A stretch of DNA of 64,000 nucleotides from NCBI GenBank assembly GCA_016204335.1, contig JACQKU010000014.1, positions 4,988 through 68,987 of the forward strand, given 5' to 3'. Shown here in pieces: positions 5,115 through 48,457 of this stretch. The stretch's first letter is position 1, and each line of letters begins with the position of its first letter. The position numbers were made by a program, and so were the translations under genes. The notes beneath the pieces were generated by a model, which saw nothing but the letters and a program-made list of their open reading frames with translations, did not search any database and had not been told where the DNA came from. This DNA is from Candidatus Liptonbacteria bacterium (lineage in GTDB: Bacteria > Patescibacteriota > Minisyncoccia > UBA6257 > 2-01-FULL-56-20).

Positions 5115-5546
5115 ATGTTCATCGGCGAATACACGCACAATCTGGATTCCAAAGGTCGGCTGGCGGTTCCGGCGAAGTTCAGGGAAAAACTTTCGTCGGG
5201 CGCCATAATCACGCGTGGACTTGATAACTGTCTTTTCGTGTTCGGCGGCAAAGAATGGGACGCGCTTGCGCAGAAACTCATCGCGCTTCCGTTGAGCCAG
5301 GCGAATTCGCGGGCATTCGTCCGTTTGATGCTTGCCGGCGCAATGGATGTGGAGATAGACGGCCAGGGCAGAATTTTAATTCCCGATTATTTGAGAAAAT
5401 ATGCTTCGCTGAACAAAGAAACCGTAATTGCCGGACTCTACAACCGGATGGAAATTTGGGACAGGAACAACTGGGAGCGCTACAAGCAAAAAACCGAAAG
5501 CGCTTCGGAAGAAATCGTGGAGAAGCTCGGAGAACTCGGTATTTGA
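5115..5546 (+). CDS. mraZ: transcriptional regulator MraZ
   Basis: MFIGEYTHNLDSKGRLAVPAKFR..; two MraZ repeats; 143 aa; first gene of the dcw cluster. Confidence 0.9.
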   Translation: MFIGEYTHNLDSKGRLAVPAKFREKLSSGAIITRGLDNCLFVFGGKEWDALAQKLIALPLSQANSRAFVRLMLAGAMDVEIDGQGRILIPDYLRKYASLNKETVIAGLYNRMEIWDRNNWERYKQKTESASEEIVEKLGELGI

Positions 5547-5639
5547 AATTAAGTAATTAAGTAATTGAGTAATTAGGTTATTAAGCCAAATTTTTTTTCG
5601 AATATCTTATAACTCAATATCCCAATATCTTAATTTCCT

Positions 5640-6593
5640 ATGACTCATATTCCTGTTCTTTTACGCGAAGTCATAAAATTTTTGGAGCCCCGCCCGGGAG
5701 AATTCTTCATAGACGGAACGATTGACGGAGGGGGACACGGCGCAGAAATTTTTGAAAAGGTCGGCCCAGACGGAATGTTGCTAGGCATAGATTGGGACGA
5801 ACGAATGATTGAGATGGCAAAAGGAAAAATTTCTGCGAAATCAAATTTGAAATCTCCCCGCCTGCGCCGAGCCCGCCTGCCGGACGGGCAGGGCTTCGGC
5901 GGGCAGGAAAAATCAAAATTGATTTTGATTCACGGGAATTACGCCGACCTGCCTGAAATCTTGAAGAACGAAAAGTTGCCGAAAGCCGATGGACTCCTGC
6001 TTGACCTTGGATTTTCCTCGGAACAGTTGGAAACATCCGGCAGAGGATTCAGTTTCACGAAAAACGAACCGCTTCTGATGACCTACGATTCATCGCGTGA
6101 GCCGGTTAAAGAAATTATCCGGGACATTAGCGAAGAAATGCTTGCGAAAATAATTTTTGAATTTGGCGGCGAGCGGTTTTCAAGGCGAATCGCAAAGGCA
6201 ATCAAGGAAAGGGGGATGAGAAAACGAATCGAGACAACCGGCGAATTGAGCGAAGCAATACGAAGCGCGGTTCCGGGAAATTACGAACGCGGCCGAATCG
6301 AACCCGCAACGCGAACGTTTCAGGCATTGCGGATTTACGCGAACGACGAATTGGGAAATCTTGGAAGAGTTTTGAAAAAATTGCCCGAGATACTGAAGCA
6401 AGGAGGCCGGGCGGCAATCATAACTTTCCATTCGCTGGAAGACAGAATAGTGAAAAACGGTTTTCGGGAAATGGAGAAGCAAAACATATTGAATATACTC
6501 GCCAAAAAGCCGATAACGCCGTCCGCGGACGAGATAAGAGAAAATCCGCGAAGCCGGTCGGCAAAATTGAGAGCAGCAAAATTAGCTTATTAG
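5640..6593 (+). CDS. rsmH: 16S rRNA (cytosine1402-N4)-methyltransferase RsmH, with an in-frame GC-rich insertion
   Basis: MTHIPVLLREV..FIDGTIDGGGH SAM motif; the segment ~5850-5930 (KSPRLRRARLPDGQGFGGQ) is encoded by nested GC hairpins absent from typical RsmH. Confidence 0.9.
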   Translation: MTHIPVLLREVIKFLEPRPGEFFIDGTIDGGGHGAEIFEKVGPDGMLLGIDWDERMIEMAKGKISAKSNLKSPRLRRARLPDGQGFGGQEKSKLILIHGNYADLPEILKNEKLPKADGLLLDLGFSSEQLETSGRGFSFTKNEPLLMTYDSSREPVKEIIRDISEEMLAKIIFEFGGERFSRRIAKAIKERGMRKRIETTGELSEAIRSAVPGNYERGRIEPATRTFQALRIYANDELGNLGRVLKKLPEILKQGGRAAIITFHSLEDRIVKNGFREMEKQNILNILAKKPITPSADEIRENPRSRSAKLRAAKLAY

Positions 6594-10896: not shown

Positions 10897-11130
10897 ATGA
10901 CTCAAAAAGTATTACAAGTGGGAACTTCCGCGGCTGTCACGATTCCCAAGGAATCTCTAAAAACTTTGGGGTTAAAAGTGGGAGACAGAATCCGCCTTGA
11001 AGTTGACGCCAAGCGTAGGGTAGTTCGGATTGAACCTTTGGCGCCGCAGGTCAACGGAGAACTTTTGGAATGGACCGATGCGTTTATCAAGCGGTATCGG
11101 AACGCACTCGACGCTCTCGCGAAAAAATAA
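10897..11130 (+). CDS. AbrB/MazE (SpoVT-AbrB) family antitoxin
   Basis: VLQVGTSAAVTIPKESLKTLGLKVGDRIRLEV swapped-hairpin motif; 77 aa; stop 4 nt before the doc start. Confidence 0.65.
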   Translation: MTQKVLQVGTSAAVTIPKESLKTLGLKVGDRIRLEVDAKRRVVRIEPLAPQVNGELLEWTDAFIKRYRNALDALAKK

Positions 11131-11134
11131 TCTT

Positions 11135-11521
11135 ATGCGGTATGTGAGCGGAGAAGAGATTTTGGTGTTGCACGCCCGTATTCTTGACGCTACGGGCGGC
11201 GCGCACGGGGTGCGCGACTAGCGCCTTCTTGCTTCATTGCTCGAAAAACCCAAAATGAAATTCGGCGGAAAAGAGTTGTACGCCGGAGTGTTCCGCAAGG
11301 CCGGGGTGTATTTCGAAGCGTTGGCGACGTACCATGTGTTTATCGACGGCAACAAGCGGACGGAGCTCGCGGTTGCGGCACGATTTCTCTTTTTGAACGG
11401 CTATACTCTTGTTTCTACCAACAACCAAGCCGAAAAGTTCATTCTCGGCGTTGCGTTGAAGAAGCATGACGTAAAAGCAATTGCAAAATGGCTGAAACAG
11501 AATTCGGAAAGGTTGGATTAA
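11135..11521 (+). pseudogene. doc: Doc (Fic family) toxin interrupted by an in-frame TAG at 11219-11221
   Basis: MRYVSGEEILVLHARILDATGGAHGVRD-stop-RLLASLLEKPK..HVFIDGNKRT (Fic/Doc motif). N-terminal segment (inside ORF 11030..11221) and C-terminal ORF 11237..11521 are in the same frame. Confidence 0.6.
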
Positions 11522-11527
11522 TCTACC

Positions 11528-11584
11528 CGCGCACCAGAGCAAAGCTCGGTGCGGGGCAAGCACGACGTTCTCAACGTCGGAACA
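11528..11584 (+). repeat. repeat A copy 2
   Basis: CGCACCAGAGCAAAGCTCGGTGCGGGGCAAGCACGACGTTCTCAACGTCGG followed by T-arm-like AGGGGTTTGATTCCCCT. Confidence 0.7.
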
Positions 11585-11736
11585 GGGGTTTGATTCCCCT
11601 TGAGGCTACTGGCTAAAGGGTTCCCTGCCCGCCGAAGCTTTTAGCAAAGGCGGGGATTCCCGTAAGCGCTACAAATATTTAAAACTGAAGAAGCCGCCCG
11701 CCTGCGACTTCAACAGTCCTGCAGGGGACGGCTTGA

Positions 11737-12021
11737 CTACTTCTTTTTGGCCGAGCGCTTCTTCGGCGAGGCGTCCGATGGCGCCGGCGACGGTTTGAGT
11801 GACTCATACCACGGTTCGATGAGCGCCCGGAAGAGCTCTCTTGATCTTTCAGGGCTCAAGTTCCGGACTTTCATCACCACGGAGCGGTTCGAGCCAATCC
11901 ACATCTTGTCCTCCTTCGTCAGGGTGGAAGAGTCGGTCGTTATTGACAGGCGCTTCCGGCTGACAAGGAAGAAGTTGCAAAGAGCTAGTTTGATTAAAGC
12001 TCTAAAGAGAAAAAATATCAA
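11737..12021 (-). CDS. small hypothetical ORF with lysine-rich C-terminus (possibly a remnant)
   Basis: 94-aa ORF ending SPKKRSAKKK; lies inside the repeat-bounded islet; weak support. Confidence 0.2.
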   Translation of the reverse strand: MIFFLFRALIKLALCNFFLVSRKRLSITTDSSTLTKEDKMWIGSNRSVVMKVRNLSPERSRELFRALIEPWYESLKPSPAPSDASPKKRSAKKK

Positions 12022-12035
12022 GCGATCCTATAATA

Positions 12036-12082
12036 ACCTACTCCACCGTCACCGATTTCGCGAGATTGCGCGGGCGGTCGAC
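12036..12082 (+). repeat. repeat B copy 2 = native 3' end of glmS
   Basis: See 10808-10854. Confidence 0.75.
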
Positions 12083-13858
12083 GTTGAGTCCTTTTTGCCG
12101 CGCGAAATAATAGGCGAATAATTGAAGCGGAATCGCCGAAAGAATCGGCGAGAGCATTTCAAGCGTTTTTGGAACGTAGATGACGTCATCGGCGACACCG
12201 CGAACTTCTTCCGAACCCTCGGTCGCGAGCGCGATTATTTTTCCTTTCCGCGCTTTGATTTCCTGCATGTTCGAGAGCATTTTTTCGTAGACGCTGTCGC
12301 GGAGCGCGATTGCCATGGTCGGAAAATTCTCGTCAATCATCGCGAGCGGCCCGTGTTTCATTTCTCCGGCTCCGCATCCTTCCGCGTGGATATAGGAAAT
12401 TTCTTTCAGTTTCAGCGCGCCCTCCAGCGCGATGGGATAATTGTATTTTCTTCCGATGTAGAGAAAATCGCGCGAGTCCGCATATTTTTCCGCGAGCGAT
12501 TGCAAATATTCTTTTTGCCCCAAAATCGCCTCGATTTTTTCCGGCAGTAAAAGCAATTCTTCTGCTATCCGTTTTCCCATTGTGGCGGACATTTGCCTTT
12601 GCCTGCCGAGGAAAAGCGTAATGAGTGAAAGCGCGGTCAGTTGCGATATGAACGCTTTCGTGGACGCGACGCCGATTTCAGGGCCAGCATGGTTGTAAAT
12701 GCCCGCGTCTGTTTCGCGCGCGATGGTCGAGCCGATGGCGTTCACGACGCCGAGCGCGAGCGCGCCCTTCCGTTTTCCTTCGCGGATTGCTTCGAGCGTG
12801 TCGAGCGTTTCGCCCGACTGGGAAATAGCGAGAAGAATCGTATCGCCGTCAATGACCGGTTTTCTGTATCTGAACTCGGACCCTACTTCGACTTCAACGG
12901 GAATGCCGGCGTATTCCTCGAGCATATATTCGCCGACAAGACCGGCATAATACGCCGTGCCGCAGGCGACAATGATAATCCGTTTTACATCGCGCAGTTT
13001 ATCCGCAACCGATTCGAGCCCGCCGAGTTTCGCGAGTCCGTCCTTGACGATTAATCTTCCCCGAATCGTATTTTTCAAAACCTCCGGCGCTTCCATAATT
13101 TCCTTCAGCATAAAATGCTCGTAGCCGCCTTTTTGCGCCTGCGAAATATCCCACTCGATTGTTTCCGGCGTTCCGATTACGCGGTTGTGGTCGAGCGTGT
13201 AGATGTTGTGCGATGAAGGCGTAATGACCGCGATTTCGCCGTCGCGCAGGTAAATCACGTTTTTCGTGTGTCGCAGAATCGGCGACGGGTCGGACGCGAT
13301 GAAATTTTCGTTTTCGCCCAAGCCCAAAACAACCGGAGCGCCCATCCTGCCAGTGATGATTTTTTCCGGTTCTTTGCTGTATGCGATTGCGAGGCCATAT
13401 GTTCCTCGGACTTCGCGAAGCGAGGCAATTACCGCTTTTTCGAAGTCATTTTCCTTTTTCAAATTTTCTTCTATCAAATGGGCAAGAACTTCAGTGTCGG
13501 TGTCGGAAACGAACGTATGTTTTTTCTTGATGAGCTTGTCTTTGATTTCCTTGTAATTTTCTATGATGCCGTTGTGCGCTACCCAGATTTCACCGGCGCA
13601 ATCCGAATGCGGATGGGCGTTTATCTCGGTCGGCTCGCCGTGCGTTGCCCAGCGCAGATGCGCGATTCCGCTTTGCCCTTTAAAGTTTTGCGGAACTTTC
13701 GCTTTTAGATTGCCAACCGCGCCGACTGCCTTGACGGTTCCCGCTTCGGGAATAAAAATACCTGCCGAATCATATCCCCGGTATTCTAGGGAAGTAAGGC
13801 CGTCAAGAAGCACTTCCGCCGCGTTTTTCTTGCCCGTGTAAGCGAATATTCCACACAT
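12038..13858 (-). CDS. glmS: glutamine--fructose-6-phosphate aminotransferase
   Basis: MCGIFAYTGKK.. with N-terminal nucleophile Cys2, two SIS domains, C-terminal ..SVTVE; 606 aa. Confidence 0.95.
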   Translation of the reverse strand: MCGIFAYTGKKNAAEVLLDGLTSLEYRGYDSAGIFIPEAGTVKAVGAVGNLKAKVPQNFKGQSGIAHLRWATHGEPTEINAHPHSDCAGEIWVAHNGIIENYKEIKDKLIKKKHTFVSDTDTEVLAHLIEENLKKENDFEKAVIASLREVRGTYGLAIAYSKEPEKIITGRMGAPVVLGLGENENFIASDPSPILRHTKNVIYLRDGEIAVITPSSHNIYTLDHNRVIGTPETIEWDISQAQKGGYEHFMLKEIMEAPEVLKNTIRGRLIVKDGLAKLGGLESVADKLRDVKRIIIVACGTAYYAGLVGEYMLEEYAGIPVEVEVGSEFRYRKPVIDGDTILLAISQSGETLDTLEAIREGKRKGALALGVVNAIGSTIARETDAGIYNHAGPEIGVASTKAFISQLTALSLITLFLGRQRQMSATMGKRIAEELLLLPEKIEAILGQKEYLQSLAEKYADSRDFLYIGRKYNYPIALEGALKLKEISYIHAEGCGAGEMKHGPLAMIDENFPTMAIALRDSVYEKMLSNMQEIKARKGKIIALATEGSEEVRGVADDVIYVPKTLEMLSPILSAIPLQLFAYYFARQKGLNVDRPRNLAKSVTVE

Positions 13859-14803
13859 AGGTAAAGTATATCAAAGATTGGAGATTGAAACTTATTATAA
13901 AAACTTGAGGGGCGCCGCGCACGTGGCACGGACACCCCTCGTTGCTTCGCTCGCCGCCGCGTCCTAGCGGCGGTGGCGATTTCTGCCGAGCGGCTCGAGG
14001 AGGTCTCTCAGCTCGCCGGCGACGCACTGGACGCGTCGCGGCCGTGAATTCCTCCAAGCCCTCCTTGCGCACCGGCATGCTTCCAACTCCTGCACTACGG
14101 GCGCGCAGAGCATACGACAGACGTCGTCCTCATTGAATTGAACCCGACTTGCTTGAGCTCGTCGGGAGTGAACTCGAGTTTCGCCCAATACGTATACCGT
14201 CCGTGCTCGCGCGGATTCGCCTCTTCGAACCGGTGAGCCATTCTGGGGCTGACTCTGCGCGGGTTAATCACGCGCTGGAGCCCACTACTGTGATGCATAA
14301 GAGCCAAGTACCCGGAAGTCCGCCCTTCTCGAATGACCTGCAGGCGGACTCTTGCGGCCGGAACAGTGGTGCGAGTGATCGAGTTGGTCATGCGGCCCCC
14401 TTGTGGTGGGATTGGTTTATTCAATCCCGGGTTTGAGTTTGCTCCGACGCTCTTACAAAAAACAGAATCCCTATTCCGCCAAAGAGCCCTGCCACAACGG
14501 CGAAAGTTCCGCGGAGCAAGGGTTGCTCCACCACTTCGCCGCCTACGACGCACATCACGAATACCAAAATACAACACAACCCAGCTATTTTCACGGCACT
14601 CTCCTTAGTAGGTTAGAGTTAGAAGCATTTCAGTCATCTCTTCGCCTTGAGACGCAATAACCAAGAAAGTTAGTTTCCAAGTTCTTGCGTATCGAGGAGT
14701 TATATTATTAAAGAGCTGAAAGTAATATAGAACATTTAAGGGTATTTTGTCAATTTTTTTCGCTGCATTATCGCGGGCGCAAAAACCTGTTATAATCTCC
14801 CGA

Positions 14804-15922
14804 ATGAGGTTATACGAATTCGAAGGCAAGCGGCTTTTTGAGAAATACGGCATTCCGGTGCCGAAGAGCGTGTTGCTGGAAAAATCCGGAAAAGTTTCCG
14901 GCATTAAGTTGCCGGTCGTACTTAAAGCCCAGGTTTTGTCCGGTGAACGGAAAAGCGCGGGCGGTATTCTTTTCCCGAAAAATAAATCGGAACTTTCACA
15001 CGGGCTCAAAAAACTTTTCGCGGCGCATATCCGCGGCGAACCCGTTCAAAAAATTTTAGTTGAGGGGCGTATCTCGGCTTCGCGCGAATATTATCTTTCG
15101 TTGAGTTACGACACCGACACGCGCGGTCCGGTTTTGGCTTTTTCTTCCCGCGGCGGCTCGCGCATAGCCATCGCGCTGAAGGCGAATGTCGCGCCGCTCG
15201 ATATTCTTCTCGGCGCAAAACCGTTTTTAATCCGCGAAGCGCTGTCAAAAGGAAAAGTTCCGTCCGAAGATATCAACGGCCTCGCGAAGGTCATTATAAA
15301 TTTATGGAAGCTTTTTGTTTCCGAATACGCGCTCGTCGCCGAAATCAATCCGTTGTTTCGGACTCCGAGCGGAGAATTTATCGCGGGAGACGCGAAAGTC
15401 ATTCTTGACGACGAAAAATTGAACCCCGGCGAGCGGAGATTCATCGAACTCGGCGGCGACATCGCGATTTTGGCGTCCGGCGGCGGCGCGTCGCTTTTGA
15501 ACATTGACGCGCTTCTCCAGTATAAAGGGAAGCCCGCGAATTACACCGAATACTCCGGCAACCCTCCGGCTGACGTGGTAAAAGCGCTAACACAGCGCGT
15601 GCTCGGCAGGCCCGGGCTCAAAGGCGCGTGGGTAATCGGCGGCACCGCGAATTTCACGGACATTTACGAAACACTGAAAGGATTTATCGAAGGACTCCGG
15701 CAGGTAAAACCGAAACCGGCATATCCGATTGTTATCCGGCGCGACGGCCCCAATCAGGAAAAAGCGTTCGCGATGCTCCGCGAAGTAGCCAAAAAAGAGG
15801 GGTACGACTTCCACCTTTTTAATTCGAAAACCTCGATGGCGGAGTCGGCGAAATTGATGGTGAAATATGCGTACCATGATAAAATCAAAATTCAAACTGC
15901 AAATATCAAAATGAAAGAGTAA
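14804..15922 (+). CDS. succinyl-CoA synthetase beta / ATP-citrate lyase small-subunit-like ATP-grasp protein
   Basis: MRLYEFEGKRLFEKYGIPVP (SucC N-terminus), LVAEINPL, GGGASLL. The ORF-track start 14747 is probably an overcall. TATAAT at 14791-14796 precedes the ATG at 14804. Confidence 0.75.
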   Translation: MRLYEFEGKRLFEKYGIPVPKSVLLEKSGKVSGIKLPVVLKAQVLSGERKSAGGILFPKNKSELSHGLKKLFAAHIRGEPVQKILVEGRISASREYYLSLSYDTDTRGPVLAFSSRGGSRIAIALKANVAPLDILLGAKPFLIREALSKGKVPSEDINGLAKVIINLWKLFVSEYALVAEINPLFRTPSGEFIAGDAKVILDDEKLNPGERRFIELGGDIAILASGGGASLLNIDALLQYKGKPANYTEYSGNPPADVVKALTQRVLGRPGLKGAWVIGGTANFTDIYETLKGFIEGLRQVKPKPAYPIVIRRDGPNQEKAFAMLREVAKKEGYDFHLFNSKTSMAESAKLMVKYAYHDKIKIQTANIKMKE

Positions 15923-16001
15923 AATGCAAAAAGCCTTTAACAATTCTTTTTTAATTTCTTCTTTTTCATTTTGCATTTTGAGATTTGATTTTTGAATTTT
16001 C
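15881..16001 (+). repeat. MITE-like long hairpin family 1 (AAAATCAAAATTCAAACTGCAAA..ATGCAAAAA / TTTTTCATTTTGCATTTTGAGATTTGATTTTTGAATTTT), copy 1
   Basis: ~40-bp inverted arms; left arm encodes the last residues and stop of the upstream gene; right arm ends 2 nt before the sucD-like ATG; near-identical copy at 59735-59857. Confidence 0.8.
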
Positions 16002-16002
16002 C

Positions 16003-16914
16003 ATGAGCATTTTAGTCGACAAAAAAACGCGCGTTTTGATTCAGGGCATCACCGGGCATGAGGGCGCGCGGGCGTGCAACGAGATGCTTTCGTACGGGAC
16101 AAAAGTGCTCGCGGGCGTGACGCCGGGAAAAGGCGGACAGAAAATATCCGGCGTGCCTGTGTATGACACTGTGCGTCAGGCGCTCGCAAAACACCGGAGT
16201 ATAAACACCTCGCTCATCGCTGTTCCCGCGGCGGCGGTCAAAGACGCGGCAATGGAAGCGATATTCGCGGGAATTCCGTTAGTGAATATTCTCGCCGAGC
16301 ACGTGCCGACTTTGGATTGCGCGGAGATTGTCGCGCGGGCTCGCGCGAAAGGCACGATACTCGTCGGCCCTTCATCTGTCGGCGTGATTTCTCCAAAAGA
16401 GAAAGTGAAAATCGGAAGCATCGGGAGTTCGCTCGTTCGAAATGTGTTCACGCCCGGTTCGGTCGGCGTTGTTTCAAAAAGCGGAGGAATGACCGCGGAA
16501 ATCGCGGTGACGCTCACGAACGCAGGCATAGGCCAGAGCACGGTGCTCGGCATCGGCGGCGACCAAATTATCGGATTCGATTTCGTGGACGCGCTCAAAT
16601 TGTTTGGGAAGGATCCGGAAACGAAAGCAGTGATACTGTTCGGTGAAGTTGGCGGCACATACGAAGAGCAGGCGGCGGAGTTTATCCGAAAAGAAAAATT
16701 CAAGAAGCCGGTTGTCGCGGTGGTGGCGGGAAAATTTACCGCGCGCCTTCCGCAAGGCACCGTGTTGGGACATGCCGGCGCGATTGTCGCGAAAGGAAAA
16801 GGCGGATACGATTCGAAAGTGCGGGCTTTCAAAAAAGCGGGCGTGCCGGTTGCGGCTACTCTTGATGAAATTCCGTGGTTGCTTCGGCAGCTACTTCGTG
16901 GAAGAATGAAGTAA
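16003..16914 (+). CDS. succinyl-CoA synthetase alpha-like CoA-binding subunit
   Basis: MSILVDKKTRVLIQGITGHEGA, phosphohistidine loop GHAGAIV, 303 aa. Confidence 0.85.
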   Translation: MSILVDKKTRVLIQGITGHEGARACNEMLSYGTKVLAGVTPGKGGQKISGVPVYDTVRQALAKHRSINTSLIAVPAAAVKDAAMEAIFAGIPLVNILAEHVPTLDCAEIVARARAKGTILVGPSSVGVISPKEKVKIGSIGSSLVRNVFTPGSVGVVSKSGGMTAEIAVTLTNAGIGQSTVLGIGGDQIIGFDFVDALKLFGKDPETKAVILFGEVGGTYEEQAAEFIRKEKFKKPVVAVVAGKFTARLPQGTVLGHAGAIVAKGKGGYDSKVRAFKKAGVPVAATLDEIPWLLRQLLRGRMK

Positions 16915-17030
16915 GTCAATGCTACGCGGGAAATCAACGAGAAAAATGTTTTTTTGGGAATCAAGTTATCTTCTCTAATTCGCGCGAATAGGAGAATAAA
17001 AAGAAAAACAAATAAACAACAAATAAACAA

Positions 17031-17756
17031 ATGAAGTGGAAAACGGCGATCAGTACACATAAAAACGGCGAGCTTTATATCCGAGGCGAGGCGTTGACCA
17101 AACTCATCGAAAAGCGCTCTTTTGCCGAGGCGATTTTTCTTGTTTTGAAAGGGACATTTCCGAATAAGCGCGAGAAGGAAATGTTCGACGCGATTCTTGT
17201 GGCTCCGATCGAGCACGGCGTTGAAGCGCCGTCCGCGTTTGTCGCGCGGACAGTCGCTTCCGTCGGCAATCCGATGAATGTCGCGCTAGCGGCTGGATTT
17301 CTCGCGACGGGGGACTGGCACGGCGGCGCAATCGAACAAGCGGCAAAAATGTTTCAGTCGGATAAAACACCGGCGGAGATTGTCTCCGGCGCGCTCGCGA
17401 AAAAAGAGCGCGTTTCCGGATTCGGACACAAAATATATAAAGAAGCCGACCCGCGCGCGGCGGCAATTTTTGCCAAGGCGAAAAAACTGAAATTCTACGG
17501 CAAATATGCCGGCCGCGCGATTGCAATCCAAAAAGAACTTGAAAAACAGTCCGGCAAAAAATTGCCGCTCAACATCGACGCCGCGATTGCCGCGGTAATT
17601 TCGGAGCTCGGATTCGACTGGCGTCTGGGAAAAGCGTTTTTCGCGCTTGGACGCCTACCTGGAATAATCGCGCACGCGCACGAGGAAATGGTGAACGAAA
17701 AGCCATACCGGCGTTTTGAGGAAGGCGATGTGGAGTATGTCGGCAAACCAATATAG
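17031..17756 (+). CDS. citrate synthase-like / citryl-CoA lyase-like protein (short, 241 aa)
   Basis: GFGHKIYKEADPRAA matches the citrate synthase family GHRVYK..DPR signature. Confidence 0.7.
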   Translation: MKWKTAISTHKNGELYIRGEALTKLIEKRSFAEAIFLVLKGTFPNKREKEMFDAILVAPIEHGVEAPSAFVARTVASVGNPMNVALAAGFLATGDWHGGAIEQAAKMFQSDKTPAEIVSGALAKKERVSGFGHKIYKEADPRAAAIFAKAKKLKFYGKYAGRAIAIQKELEKQSGKKLPLNIDAAIAAVISELGFDWRLGKAFFALGRLPGIIAHAHEEMVNEKPYRRFEEGDVEYVGKPI

Positions 17757-24271: not shown

Positions 24272-24452
24272 ATAAAAGTGTGCTATCTTGTATCCAGAAT
24301 TTTGACAGTTGAATTTCTGCGGCAACAAAGAGGATTTTCTGAATTTTCTTTATTGCTGCGGAAACATTACGGCAAAAGATTCCCTAAAGTTTCGCTTCAA
24401 GGCGAAACACCCGACTTTCTGAAAGGAAGCGGGTAGGAAAAGGAGGATCGGA

Positions 24453-24599
24453 ATGAATTGGGCGATTGCGCTTCTTTCTCTGGTCGGGATGGCGTGCCTC
24501 GCGCATGCCATGCCGGCGCATCCCTTGAACGCTGGTATCGGATTCACCCTTTACGCCGGTACCCTCGGTCTGGGCATGTGGGGCGTCGCGACCAGCTGA
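24453..24599 (+). CDS. small hydrophobic ORF (48 aa) with strong AGGAGG RBS
   Basis: AGGAGGATCGGAATG..; MNWAIALLSLVGMACLAHAMPA..; below ORF-track size cutoff. Confidence 0.3.
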   Translation: MNWAIALLSLVGMACLAHAMPAHPLNAGIGFTLYAGTLGLGMWGVATS

Positions 24600-26060
24600 C
24601 CTCCTCTGCTCACAATCTTCCCGCCGTTCCAGTCCAGGCCCCCACACGCCGCACAGGCGTTCGTCGGGGGTCTCGTTCATTTTTGAGACTTTTCGAAGTG
24701 AGAATACGTATATGGAAGTTTTTTCCCGCTTCTACCCAACGCGGAGATTTTCGTTTTGAAAGCAGCTCTCGGAGGCAACAAAAGCTTGGTGTCCGAAGGA
24801 CTTTTGTTGCTGAGAGGAAGACGAAAAACACCGCTGGAGTGTTTTTACGGCGGTGCTTTCAAAACGAAAACCGGAGCACCTGCACAAGTTCAGATACATA
24901 TGAGACTTTTCGAACGGTCGAAAAGTCATGCGAATCCATAGCAAAATAGCTCATACCCGAGGGTTTGTCTCAACCTACAACGAGGCGCTACGCTTGCGGG
25001 ATATGATTACCCGTAAAGCAGAGGAACGCGCCCGCATCCTCGCGTTCTGGCAGAAGCACGGGGATGCCGCAGCCAAAGAGGCGTTCACCATTTCTCGTCC
25101 CACCTTGTTTCGATGGCAGAACAATCTCCATGCCGGAAGCGGCAAGCTCGAGGCATTGAATCCGGGAAGCACCGCGCCGAAGAACAGACGGAAACGGACG
25201 ATCCCTGAATCAGTCAAAGACCTCATTCTCACGGAACGTTCACGCGAGCGCATAGGCAAAGAGAAACTTGCCTTGCTTCTCAAGGAAGACGGCATCGCAA
25301 CGCTCTCGCCGTCAACGGTCGGCAGGATGCTCGATGATATGAAGCGCGCCGGCAAACTTCCGAACCCGCGCAAACTCTCTTTCTCGGGAAAGACCGGACG
25401 GCTCAACGAGCGAATAGCCCCGCAATACAAGAAGAAACTGCGGAGCAATGGCCATGAGGGAGCTCTCGTGAAAGCCGATACCGTGGTGAGATTCACGAAC
25501 GGCATCAAGCGGTATATTCTGACCGCGATTGATCAAGAAACGAAGTTTGCTTTCGCGTATGGCTACCCCTCGCATGGCTCGCAGCATGCCGCTGAGTTTA
25601 TGCAGACCTTCAAAGACGTGGCGCCAATTTCTCTGACTCATGTGCAGACGGATAACGGAAGCGAATTTGCAAATCATTTTGAGTCCTATCTGACCACAGA
25701 AGGCATTATCCATTTCCATATTTATCCCCGTTCTCCCCAGATGAATGCGGAGATCGAACGATTCAACCGGACCTTGTCCGAAGCCTTTATCTCGAAGAAC
25801 AGACATTTGTTGGCATACGACCTTCCCGCATTCAATCGAGAACTTATGGATTGGTTACTGTGGTACAACACGCGCAGGCCGCACTGGTCGATTGGCTTGA
25901 TTTCTCCGTTGAGGTATATTGTGAATCAACTACCCGCCGAAGAGTCTCATATGTTGTGGACGAGTACAGCACCTTGACTTTTAGTTGCAAGCCATGCTAT
26001 ACTCTCTTCGAATGAGTGTGAATATGCCTTAACGATGATATCGACTAAGGTATGTCGCAT
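24600..26060 (+). mobile_element. probable IS element carrying the transposase; ends not resolved
   Basis: Transposase ORF preceded by a 330-bp structured non-coding tract with GAGACTTTTCGAA direct repeats; no clean terminal inverted repeats found by eye. Confidence 0.35.
24928..25977 (+). CDS. IS481-like family DDE transposase (HTH + rve integrase core)
   Basis: N-terminal HTH (ISRPTLFRWQ), DDE core with DNGSEF, C-terminal YNTRRPHWSIGLISP; alternative start at 25003. Confidence 0.8.
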   Translation: MRIHSKIAHTRGFVSTYNEALRLRDMITRKAEERARILAFWQKHGDAAAKEAFTISRPTLFRWQNNLHAGSGKLEALNPGSTAPKNRRKRTIPESVKDLILTERSRERIGKEKLALLLKEDGIATLSPSTVGRMLDDMKRAGKLPNPRKLSFSGKTGRLNERIAPQYKKKLRSNGHEGALVKADTVVRFTNGIKRYILTAIDQETKFAFAYGYPSHGSQHAAEFMQTFKDVAPISLTHVQTDNGSEFANHFESYLTTEGIIHFHIYPRSPQMNAEIERFNRTLSEAFISKNRHLLAYDLPAFNRELMDWLLWYNTRRPHWSIGLISPLRYIVNQLPAEESHMLWTSTAP

Positions 26061-47701: not shown

Positions 47702-48457
47702 ATGGCCCGTATGGATTCAGGTAGGGGGATAGTGTTGGTTGGCGTACTTAAAAGAAAACGCGACCTCACGATTCTCCTGCGTGAGCGCTGGTATCGTATT
47801 CCTCGCGCATGGTTTCCGAAAAGGAAATTTCAATATCTCGCGTTTTATCAACCTGCTTTGTTCGGCCGGCAAGGGAAGCGGATTCAGTATTATGCGCGCG
47901 TGATGCGTTGCGAGACACATAAGCGGCGCGGATTGTTGCCGCGCGAATCCGTGCATCCGAACGCCGACGCGGAGTATGCGCAGATCCATGTCGCCGATAT
48001 CAAAAAACTGCCAAAAGCGATTATAAATCGTCGGCCGGGACAGCCACGACGCGTGTCTTTCGGCTTCACCACGTTCACGTGTTTGAAAACGGCGAGAAAT
48101 ATTTTGGAATTATACCGCGTCGCGCCGACCGAGGAGATGATGGGAAAGGCGCTTGTGGAATCCGGCATTCGGGCGATTCCGCAGCACTATGTTTCGAGCG
48201 GCTTGAAGCGAAGGAAAAAACTATATTGTCTTGATTTTGCGATATTGTGCAAATGGGGCGCGATCGCGATCGAGTGCGACAATCGAAAAGCTCATGTCGG
48301 GGCGCGACAGCGCGCAAAGGACGGGACGAAAGACGCTTTTTTGCGCCGGCGCGGCTGGACCGTGGTCCGGCTTAAGGAAGAAGAAATCGTGCTTCGCCTC
48401 GAGGATTGCATTACTCACATACGTAAAACAATCCAAGCCCTCGGCGGCCAATCCTAA
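47702..48457 (+). CDS. DUF559 (Vsr-like PD-(D/E)xK) domain protein with unknown N-terminal domain
   Basis: C-terminal LDFAILCKWGAIAIECDNRKAH..RRRGWTVVRL. Confidence 0.5.
   Translation: MARMDSGRGIVLVGVLKRKRDLTILLRERWYRIPRAWFPKRKFQYLAFYQPALFGRQGKRIQYYARVMRCETHKRRGLLPRESVHPNADAEYAQIHVADIKKLPKAIINRRPGQPRRVSFGFTTFTCLKTARNILELYRVAPTEEMMGKALVESGIRAIPQHYVSSGLKRRKKLYCLDFAILCKWGAIAIECDNRKAHVGARQRAKDGTKDAFLRRRGWTVVRLKEEEIVLRLEDCITHIRKTIQALGGQS

Follow-up and report, generated by a model that had tools for sequence, protein, structure and literature searches.

What lies between glmS and a divergently oriented ccsA-like gene on an 87-kb contig of a Candidatus Liptonbacteria MAG (Parcubacteria, CPR)? The spacer is the largest apparent gap between long open reading frames within the window, which here means the whole stretch of 64,000 nucleotides analysed and whose positions are used as coordinates throughout. 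A first, sequence-only reading described about 890 bp of GC-rich, non-coding DNA upstream of glmS and proposed an unexplained structured element. The gap exists, and it spans 945 bp (13859-14803) because the ccsA-like gene starts at ATG 14804 and not at the upstream TTG 14747. Downstream of the ccsA-like gene are genes for a CoA-ligase alpha subunit and a citryl-CoA lyase. The PGAP annotation places no features in the tract, and the products of the two flanking genes are numbered consecutively, so the public record has no CDS between them. Exact protein look-ups returned no record as called genes for glmS or for the two small open reading frames discussed below, ORF57 and ORF98.

We suggest, as a fairly probable reading, that the tract is a small unannotated minus-strand operon with its own promoter and terminator, and that it serves glmS neither as a leader nor as a ribozyme. 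Transcription would begin at a sigma70-like promoter located back to back with the promoter of the ccsA-like gene. A 120-nt hairpin leader would be transcribed first, followed by the coding sequence of a 57-aa membrane protein with two helices. Third in the unit would be a GC-rich orphan gene, now 98 aa long and probably of 140 codons before a 5-bp duplication shifted its frame. A strong intrinsic terminator would end transcription before glmS, which would then start, leaderless, from its own extended -10 promoter. The whole unit would sit at a junction made in this lineage by an inversion of glmS relative to the ccsA operon. We infer the minus-strand transcription itself from these signals, and the two products might form a membrane-associated accessory pair. 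The features on which this account is built are collected in Table 1.

Table 1. Positions of the genes, candidate genes and predicted signals in and around the glmS/ccsA-like spacer.
Feature	Position	Strand	Details
glmS	13858 to 12038	minus	606 aa; product MBI4086073.1
glmS promoter (probable), extended -10 box TGATATACT	13865..13873	minus	6 nt before ATG
Intrinsic terminator (predicted)	13940-13895	minus	14-pair GC-rich hairpin (13940-13907), then AAGUUUUUAUAAUAAG
Hairpin CCGCCGC/GCGGCGG	13953-13973		named in the sequence-only reading; found
Continuation frame, C-terminal 56 codons of the putative 140-codon gene	13964..14132	minus	TAG 13966-13964
Hairpin GCGACGC/GCGTCGC	14019-14039		named in the sequence-only reading; found
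TTCAA/TTCAA 5-nt tandem duplication	14133-14142	minus	with one copy removed, ORF98 runs on into the downstream frame
ORF98, GC-rich basic ORFan	14391-14095	minus	ATG 14391; AAGGGGG + 4 nt upstream
Hairpin AGTCCGCC/GGCGGACT	14317-14350		named in the sequence-only reading; found
ORF57, 57 aa, two hydrophobic helices	14594-14421	minus	GTG start; AAGGAG at 6-nt spacing
5' leader (putative), ~120 nt	14595..14717	minus	long imperfect hairpin ~14645-14697
Sigma70-like promoter (predicted)	14753-14724	minus	TTGACA, 18-nt spacer, TATATT; 11/12 consensus matches
ccsA-like promoter (predicted), extended -10 box TGTTATAAT	14788..14796	plus	7 nt before ATG 14804
ccsA-like gene (succinyl/citryl-CoA-synthetase beta-like)	ATG 14804	plus	372 aa; product MBI4086074.1

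Comparative sequence evidence leads us to conclude that ORF57 is a genuine gene overlooked by annotation. It is taken as a gene because it has a counterpart in the related contig L163 and because its conservation follows the codon-position pattern of a translated gene. The counterpart is intact, encodes 55 aa and is a called gene (P0007), with an ATG in the same alignment column. The two proteins share 21 of 53 residues (40%), and, measured against shuffles that preserve composition, their alignment reaches z 7.5 (global) and 9.3 (local). Nucleotide identity is 0.54-0.57, 0.68-0.72 and 0.43-0.45 at codon positions 1, 2 and 3 (2>1>3), the indels of 6 nt and 3 nt preserve the frame, and both hydrophobic helices, which in ORF57 exceed a hydropathy of 2 at residues 1-19 and 31-47, are retained in the 55-aa protein. 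Alignment of the antisense frame gives z 6.5, but its conservation follows the pattern 1>2>3, and within the window that frame lacks a start codon. The GC content of ORF57 by codon position (0.60/0.41/0.53) resembles that of host genes, and its host-trained codon score of -0.003 falls between those of shadow ORFs and real genes. The cluster of the 55-aa protein has one member, and a search of 5.8 billion clusters found no homologue beyond the L163 lineage. No family was matched in Pfam, NCBIfam, PHROGs, PADLOC or the PDB. ORF57 resembles the unannotated small membrane proteins encoded by hydrophobic sORFs of 50-60 aa in its size and two helices, its own SD-like site, its omission by PGAP and its conservation in close relatives only, and differs from them in matching no known family in these databases. 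The earlier view that the spacer holds only artefact-looking ORFs is wrong for ORF57, which is conserved as coding sequence in L163.

The signals upstream of ORF57 are shared with the same group of relatives. From the predicted promoter, which is back to back with the extended -10 box of the ccsA-like gene, minus-strand transcription would start near 14717. L082, L163 and L164 have an identical -35 box and a -10 box of TATGTT at a 17-nt spacing. The putative leader folds at -30.8 kcal/mol (z -2.3), and between the two lineages compared its long hairpin is kept with two compensatory pairs despite a 10-nt insertion in the loop. Within the leader, ACUCU could pair with the SD-like AAGGAGAG, although this hairpin, at about -6 kcal/mol, is weak and falls short of significance.

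The closest glmS among 185,579 species genomes is 77% identical, and the regions upstream of glmS in such relatives measure 22-413 bp, show no similarity to the tract and often follow other genes. In several more distant Parcubacteria (L026, L088, L094, L098 and L105) the two genes share a strand, with glmS 12-53 bp upstream of ccsA; the divergent layout and the spacer are therefore lineage-specific. The ccsA side tells a different story in three short contigs, L082, L163 and L164, where ccsA is 88-90% identical and the ccsA-proximal part of the tract is conserved, best of all at 14730-14803. L163 reaches 490 nt upstream of ccsA. L082 matches the tract at 74% identity by blastn and 84% by column identity, and it was the sole match when 80 glmS loci and 80 ccsA loci were searched with blastn, tblastn and nhmmer.

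Between ORF57 and the terminator lies the core of the tract, to which the description as GC-rich properly applies. Positions 13900-14400 have 63% GC and rank first among 1270 windows of 500 bp, and the trinucleotide distance of the core ranks 12th of 1270. The window and the genome have 48% GC, with AT-rich spacers elsewhere, and the ccsA-proximal part from about 14500 to 14800 has 42% GC, so the spacer is GC-rich in part and not, as had been claimed, throughout. ORF98 begins 29 nt after ORF57 and is followed, up to the terminator, by about 155 nt of very GC-rich sequence. Its codon-position GC is 0.556/0.515/0.687, and the continuation frame, which contains the hairpins at 14019-14039 and 13953-13973, has 0.68/0.53/0.76 on the minus strand. 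Joined by removal of one duplicated copy, the two give an ORF of 140 codons with GC1/2/3 of 0.63/0.50/0.72 (chi2 13.7, p 0.001), which ends in a TAG stop with 23 nt left up to the terminator stem. The codon phase with the highest GC switches near 14130 from coordinate mod 3 = 1 to mod 3 = 2, at the duplication, and the order GC3>GC1>GC2 occurs in both halves solely in minus-strand frames. A 5-nt tandem duplication within the 94-nt overlap zone arises in 5.6% of shuffles. The duplication is not an assembly error, as it occurs in the window and again in the Logan contig L162, an independent assembly that matches 14119-15987 at 100% identity and has a gene called at ORF98.

These patterns suggest that ORF98 probably retains 84 N-terminal codons from an older gene of 140 codons, followed by 14 codons read out of frame, and that the core is probably an orphan gene of foreign-looking composition that is now disrupted. 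The TTCAA duplication would be the event that disrupted the frame, the gene may have been acquired horizontally, and ORF98 might still be translated. L163 conserves an ATG at the ORF98 position with AGGAGG 4 nt upstream, and the frame stays open there for 22 codons up to the contig end, with 6 of 15 aligned residues identical. The core shares with frameshifted ORFans or remnants of horizontal transfer a non-host GC content and codon-position profile, SD-type starts in a gene set largely free of SD motifs and a 140-codon frame split by a 5-bp duplication; there is no intact homologue for the ancestral frame. Coding of the core on the plus strand was rejected, as it needs stop read-through and a frameshift and comes without start signals; the antisense plus frame of the continuation segment contains a stop. 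Once ORF57, the core and the signals are assigned, the non-coding remainder comes to pieces of 209, 29 and 105 nt, which are ordinary sizes. The notion of 0.9 kb of non-coding DNA is thus hard to maintain, with ORF57 conserved, the core periodic with a phase switch and the start of ORF98 kept together with its SD-like motif.

Several results speak against coding in the core. The joined 140-aa ORF and the concatenated six-frame open segments of at least 30 aa, except ORF98, found no match among 5.8 billion clusters. Searching ORF98 with phmmer against 1.84 billion representatives gave one match, P0001 (E 2.6e-5), which was rejected as an artefact because this 1044-aa protein has 8 tandem repeats whose weak per-repeat scores sum up. 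No candidate ORF belongs to a family in Pfam, NCBIfam, PHROGs or PADLOC; SpoIIIAC (E 0.38) and phrog_6780 (E 0.046) were set aside as hydrophobic noise, and PDB sequence searches gave chance or TM-helix matches only. AF2 modelling was uninformative, with a pLDDT of 53.5 for ORF98 and 42.7 for the joined ORF, and Foldseek found no match in the PDB (E<=0.001). The host-trained codon score of ORF98 (-0.017) is borderline, between shadow ORFs and real genes. The ORF length lies within chance, as 72% of dinucleotide shuffles of the tract contain an ORF of at least 98 codons and 11.5% one of at least 160. A frameshift-corrected protein homologue, which would have refuted the sequence-only proposal by its own terms, was found in none of the six frames, and the evidence for coding is therefore internal and comparative only.

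The same observations could be read as decay without a gene. The core, apart from ORF57 and the terminator, might be non-functional debris, either a scar of the glmS inversion or decaying DNA that was acquired horizontally and was never genic in this host. The lineage-specific spacer fits this idea, as do the position of glmS directly upstream of ccsA in distant relatives and the dissimilar gaps in closer ones. The atypical composition of the core, the frameshift and the missing homologues point the same way, and decay is seen nearby in other accessory genes around glmS, such as a split Doc toxin, and in an insertion scar in L095. Against debris, at least the beginning of the core, ATG and SD-like motif included, is retained in a lineage where ccsA is only 88-90% identical, and neutral DNA should lose GC over time in an AT-biased genome. 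The periodicity is still clear, and the position of the terminator falls exactly behind the joined ORF. We therefore regard debris as unlikely, though not negligible.

Could the core instead be an RNA? In that case about 13900-14400 would be a lineage-specific structured ncRNA, forming the 3' portion of the ORF57 transcript or an RNA of its own, and the ORFs would have arisen by chance in GC-rich sequence. The GC content of the core, the highest in a genome that has 48% GC and AT-rich spacers, is compatible with this, and the three GC hairpins pointed out earlier are all present among several of 7-8 bp in the core. Also compatible are ORF lengths within chance, the absence of any six-frame homologue, low AF2 confidence and a MAFFT nucleotide alignment to L163 with a 2-nt gap that would break the ORF98 frame. 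The 536-nt core folds with z -2.3 to -3.2 against dinucleotide shuffles, on both strands alike. Among 18 control folds elsewhere in the window, two had z <= -3.1 and a third -3.10, with one at -5.3, and some of these controls lie inside ordinary genes and match or exceed the core. Because the controls span +1.9 to -5.3, the excess structure of the core is real but modest and not exceptional. Known families offer no anchor either. A cmscan of 13500-15100 on both strands with 4227 Rfam families found no glmS ribozyme at E<=10, and the only three matches at that threshold (speF, psaA and IS009) are all chance. RNase P, tmRNA, group I/II introns, OLE, ROOL, GOLLD, HEARO and 6S gave no match to the tract at E<=10, ARAGORN found no tRNA or tmRNA in it, and Rfam gathering thresholds returned 4 tRNAs and nothing else across the entire 64-kb window. 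The scan for large structured RNAs that had been recommended for this region matched no family in the tract. An RNA gene would also not be expected to show three-base GC periodicity with a phase switch (p 0.001) or an ATG with an SD-like motif conserved in L163. An ncRNA is improbable on this evidence, and coding or formerly coding DNA is favoured over an unexplained non-coding element. The GC richness and the hairpins most likely derive from the orphan gene, with its foreign-looking composition, and from the terminator.

A further reading, which we consider quite improbable, takes the transcript as a module of dual function or of a type I toxin-like kind, particular to this Liptonbacteria lineage. 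Its structured leader would restrain the small membrane peptide, and its GC-rich tail of about 500 nt would be a new structured CPR ncRNA and not an orphan gene. Type I toxin-antitoxin systems (Hok/Sok, Fst, TxpA) share with the tract a hydrophobic peptide of less than 60 aa, a long leader with a stable hairpin and possibly a weak hairpin over the SD-like site. They differ in that the peptide here has two helices and not one, a second ORF stands in the operon and there is no sequence similarity. No antisense RNA gene was found, a promoter scan detected no antisense promoter, and neither small product matched defence, phage, plasmid or toxin families. By analogy, a type I toxin-like reading of ORF57 and its leader is possible, and the folds behind it are weak.

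At the glmS end, the hairpin followed by TTTTTAT that had been noticed on the minus strand is present, with UUUUUAU after the stem. The centroid hairpin reaches -27.5 kcal/mol, AAGUUUUUAU comes directly after the stem and the U-run occupies 13903-13899. The signal resembles intrinsic terminators in its GC-rich 14-pair hairpin with a direct U-run 23 nt past a stop codon, and differs from them in a short run of 5 U, the AAG before it and an overlap with a TATAAT-like hexamer. A simple scanner did not pick it up. Termination is predicted to be one-directional, with no T-run after the hairpin on the plus strand. Of the two explanations first offered, a terminated upstream minus-strand transcript is the better reading of the hairpin and U-tract, with the upstream promoter conserved in relatives.

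The other, an attenuator, would make the tract a long regulatory leader of glmS in which read-through of the hairpin and U-tract controls expression. The glmS gene is riboswitch-controlled in Firmicutes through the glmS ribozyme (Rfam RF00234), which counts in favour of this idea, as does the terminator, which precedes the glmS ATG by 36 nt on the same strand. The likeness to the ribozyme is one of position only, upstream of glmS and on the same strand. The earlier judgement that this is not a glmS ribozyme was borne out, with no RF00234 match at E<=10, and the tract differs further in being absent from relatives and separated from glmS by the terminator and a promoter. The terminator and the ATG are separated by an extended -10 box, a feature shared with other genes here that appear to be leaderless, and the tract holds a conserved protein gene, ORF57. 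The short and unrelated glmS upstream regions of relatives, often preceded by other genes, make an attenuator unlikely. Taken together, a regulatory leader is very improbable. The ribosome-binding site once assigned to glmS was not found, there being no Shine-Dalgarno site before the gene. The extended -10 box 6 nt before the ATG implies that the glmS mRNA is probably leaderless.

A Tn7-like/attTn7 insertion is dismissed, since the tract borders glmS at its 5' side and not downstream of its 3' end, no ORF has a Pfam match, no repeats or paralogues of the tract occur elsewhere in the window, and the sole terminal inverted repeat (13 nt, flanking 14077-14628) is partly deleted in L082 and no more than chance would give (about 0.3 expected). 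A phage or plasmid origin finds no similarity in blastn in distant mode (50,697 phage and 72,556 plasmid records), back-translated IMG/VR scans or PHROGs. An exact 26-mer search of JGI metagenomes also gave no match.

The small minus-strand operon that we favour is most likely a fairly ordinary find of unannotated small genes and a terminator. The largest annotated intergenic gap of a Liptonbacteria MAG contains at least one real gene for a small membrane protein, and probably a second, disrupted orphan gene hidden in the same glmS/ccsA-like gap. A false lead is removed in that no new ribozyme or riboswitch precedes glmS. If the core were an RNA after all, it would be a new CPR-specific ncRNA; for now, DNA that codes or once coded for protein is the better-supported reading. 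The tract also marks a putative lineage-specific inversion of glmS beside the citryl-CoA synthetase/lyase operon.

The locus further points to an expression pattern of the host. No SD motif was found in 42 of the 47 window genes, and a TANNNT motif ends 5-9 nt before the ATG in 10 of 47, with 5 and 1 at control offsets. This suggests that leaderless mRNAs are widespread in the host, with many genes lacking an SD and having a -10 box placed 5-9 nt ahead of the ATG. Both neighbours of the tract would be included, as the divergent plus-strand promoter of the ccsA-like operon is apparently leaderless as well. The few leadered host genes, ORF57 and ORF98 among them, appear to carry SD-like motifs. 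A leadered gene with its ATG at 24454 carries the SD motif AAAAGGAGG, and the SD-like motifs before ORF57 and ORF98 therefore fit leadered, translated genes.

The linkage of glmS with the ccs genes itself recurs across loci, something one would not expect of a CPR lineage. Among more distant Parcubacteria (loci L026, L088, L094, L098 and L105), the genes for ccsA, ccsB and citryl-CoA lyase lie 12-53 bp downstream of glmS on the same strand. Unlike in these loci, glmS in the window is inverted relative to the ccsA/ccsB/citryl-CoA lyase operon (12038-17756 for glmS and operon together). In two further loci, L095 and L096, glmS and ccsA are separated by a 517-bp insertion (5484-6000), which contains a small hydrophobic ORF and terminates in a duplicate of the glmS C-terminus (…ARNLAKSVTVE). 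The insertion resembles a scar left when an element integrates next to the 3' end of glmS, as happens at attTn7.

The region just downstream of glmS in the window carries a decayed toxin-antitoxin module, and the 474 bp adjoining the downstream end of the gene (~57% GC) hold no recognizable gene. A Pfam search with the 94-aa and 124-aa ORFs of this piece returned no match. The piece may be further unannotated or decayed sequence at the opposite end of the inverted glmS segment.

Features in the window near glmS, at the back-to-back promoters and in the strongly folding stretch
Feature	Position	Content
Toxin-antitoxin module	10897-11521	MazE/AbrB-type antitoxin (PF04014) first, then Doc/Fic toxin
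Doc/Fic toxin	11030-11221 and 11237-11521	Broken into two ORFs
Piece adjoining glmS	11564-12037	
Back-to-back promoter block	14730-14803	TCGCTGCATTATCGCGGGCGCAAAAA between the two promoters
Strongly folding stretch	24272-24986	Promoter-like CTTGACA…; 180-nt leader with hairpins; AAAAGGAGG upstream of signal-peptide gene at 24454

The spacer between glmS and the ccsA-like gene coincides with assembly breaks. Four independent assemblies of the same organism or close relatives all end within it, at ~14553 (L082 and L164), ~14330 (L163) and 14119 (L162). One break lies 14 nt from the 5-bp duplication TTCAA TTCAA (14133-14142). The breaks may stem from poor read coverage where the DNA is GC-rich, or from heterogeneity between strains. 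Within the spacer, the related lineage shows its highest conservation in the promoter block, which could hold an operator for the ccsA operon.

Elsewhere in the window, the strongly folding stretch (536 nt) showed the largest folding excess of all controls (z -5.3, plus strand), and Rfam gave no match within it. Across the 47 long ORFs of the whole window, an SD-like motif of any kind accompanies only five genes, and a TANNNT box ends 5-9 nt upstream of the ATG in ten (e.g., at 47702, 56348 and 54127). Together, these start signals suggest that leaderless mRNAs are common in the source organism.
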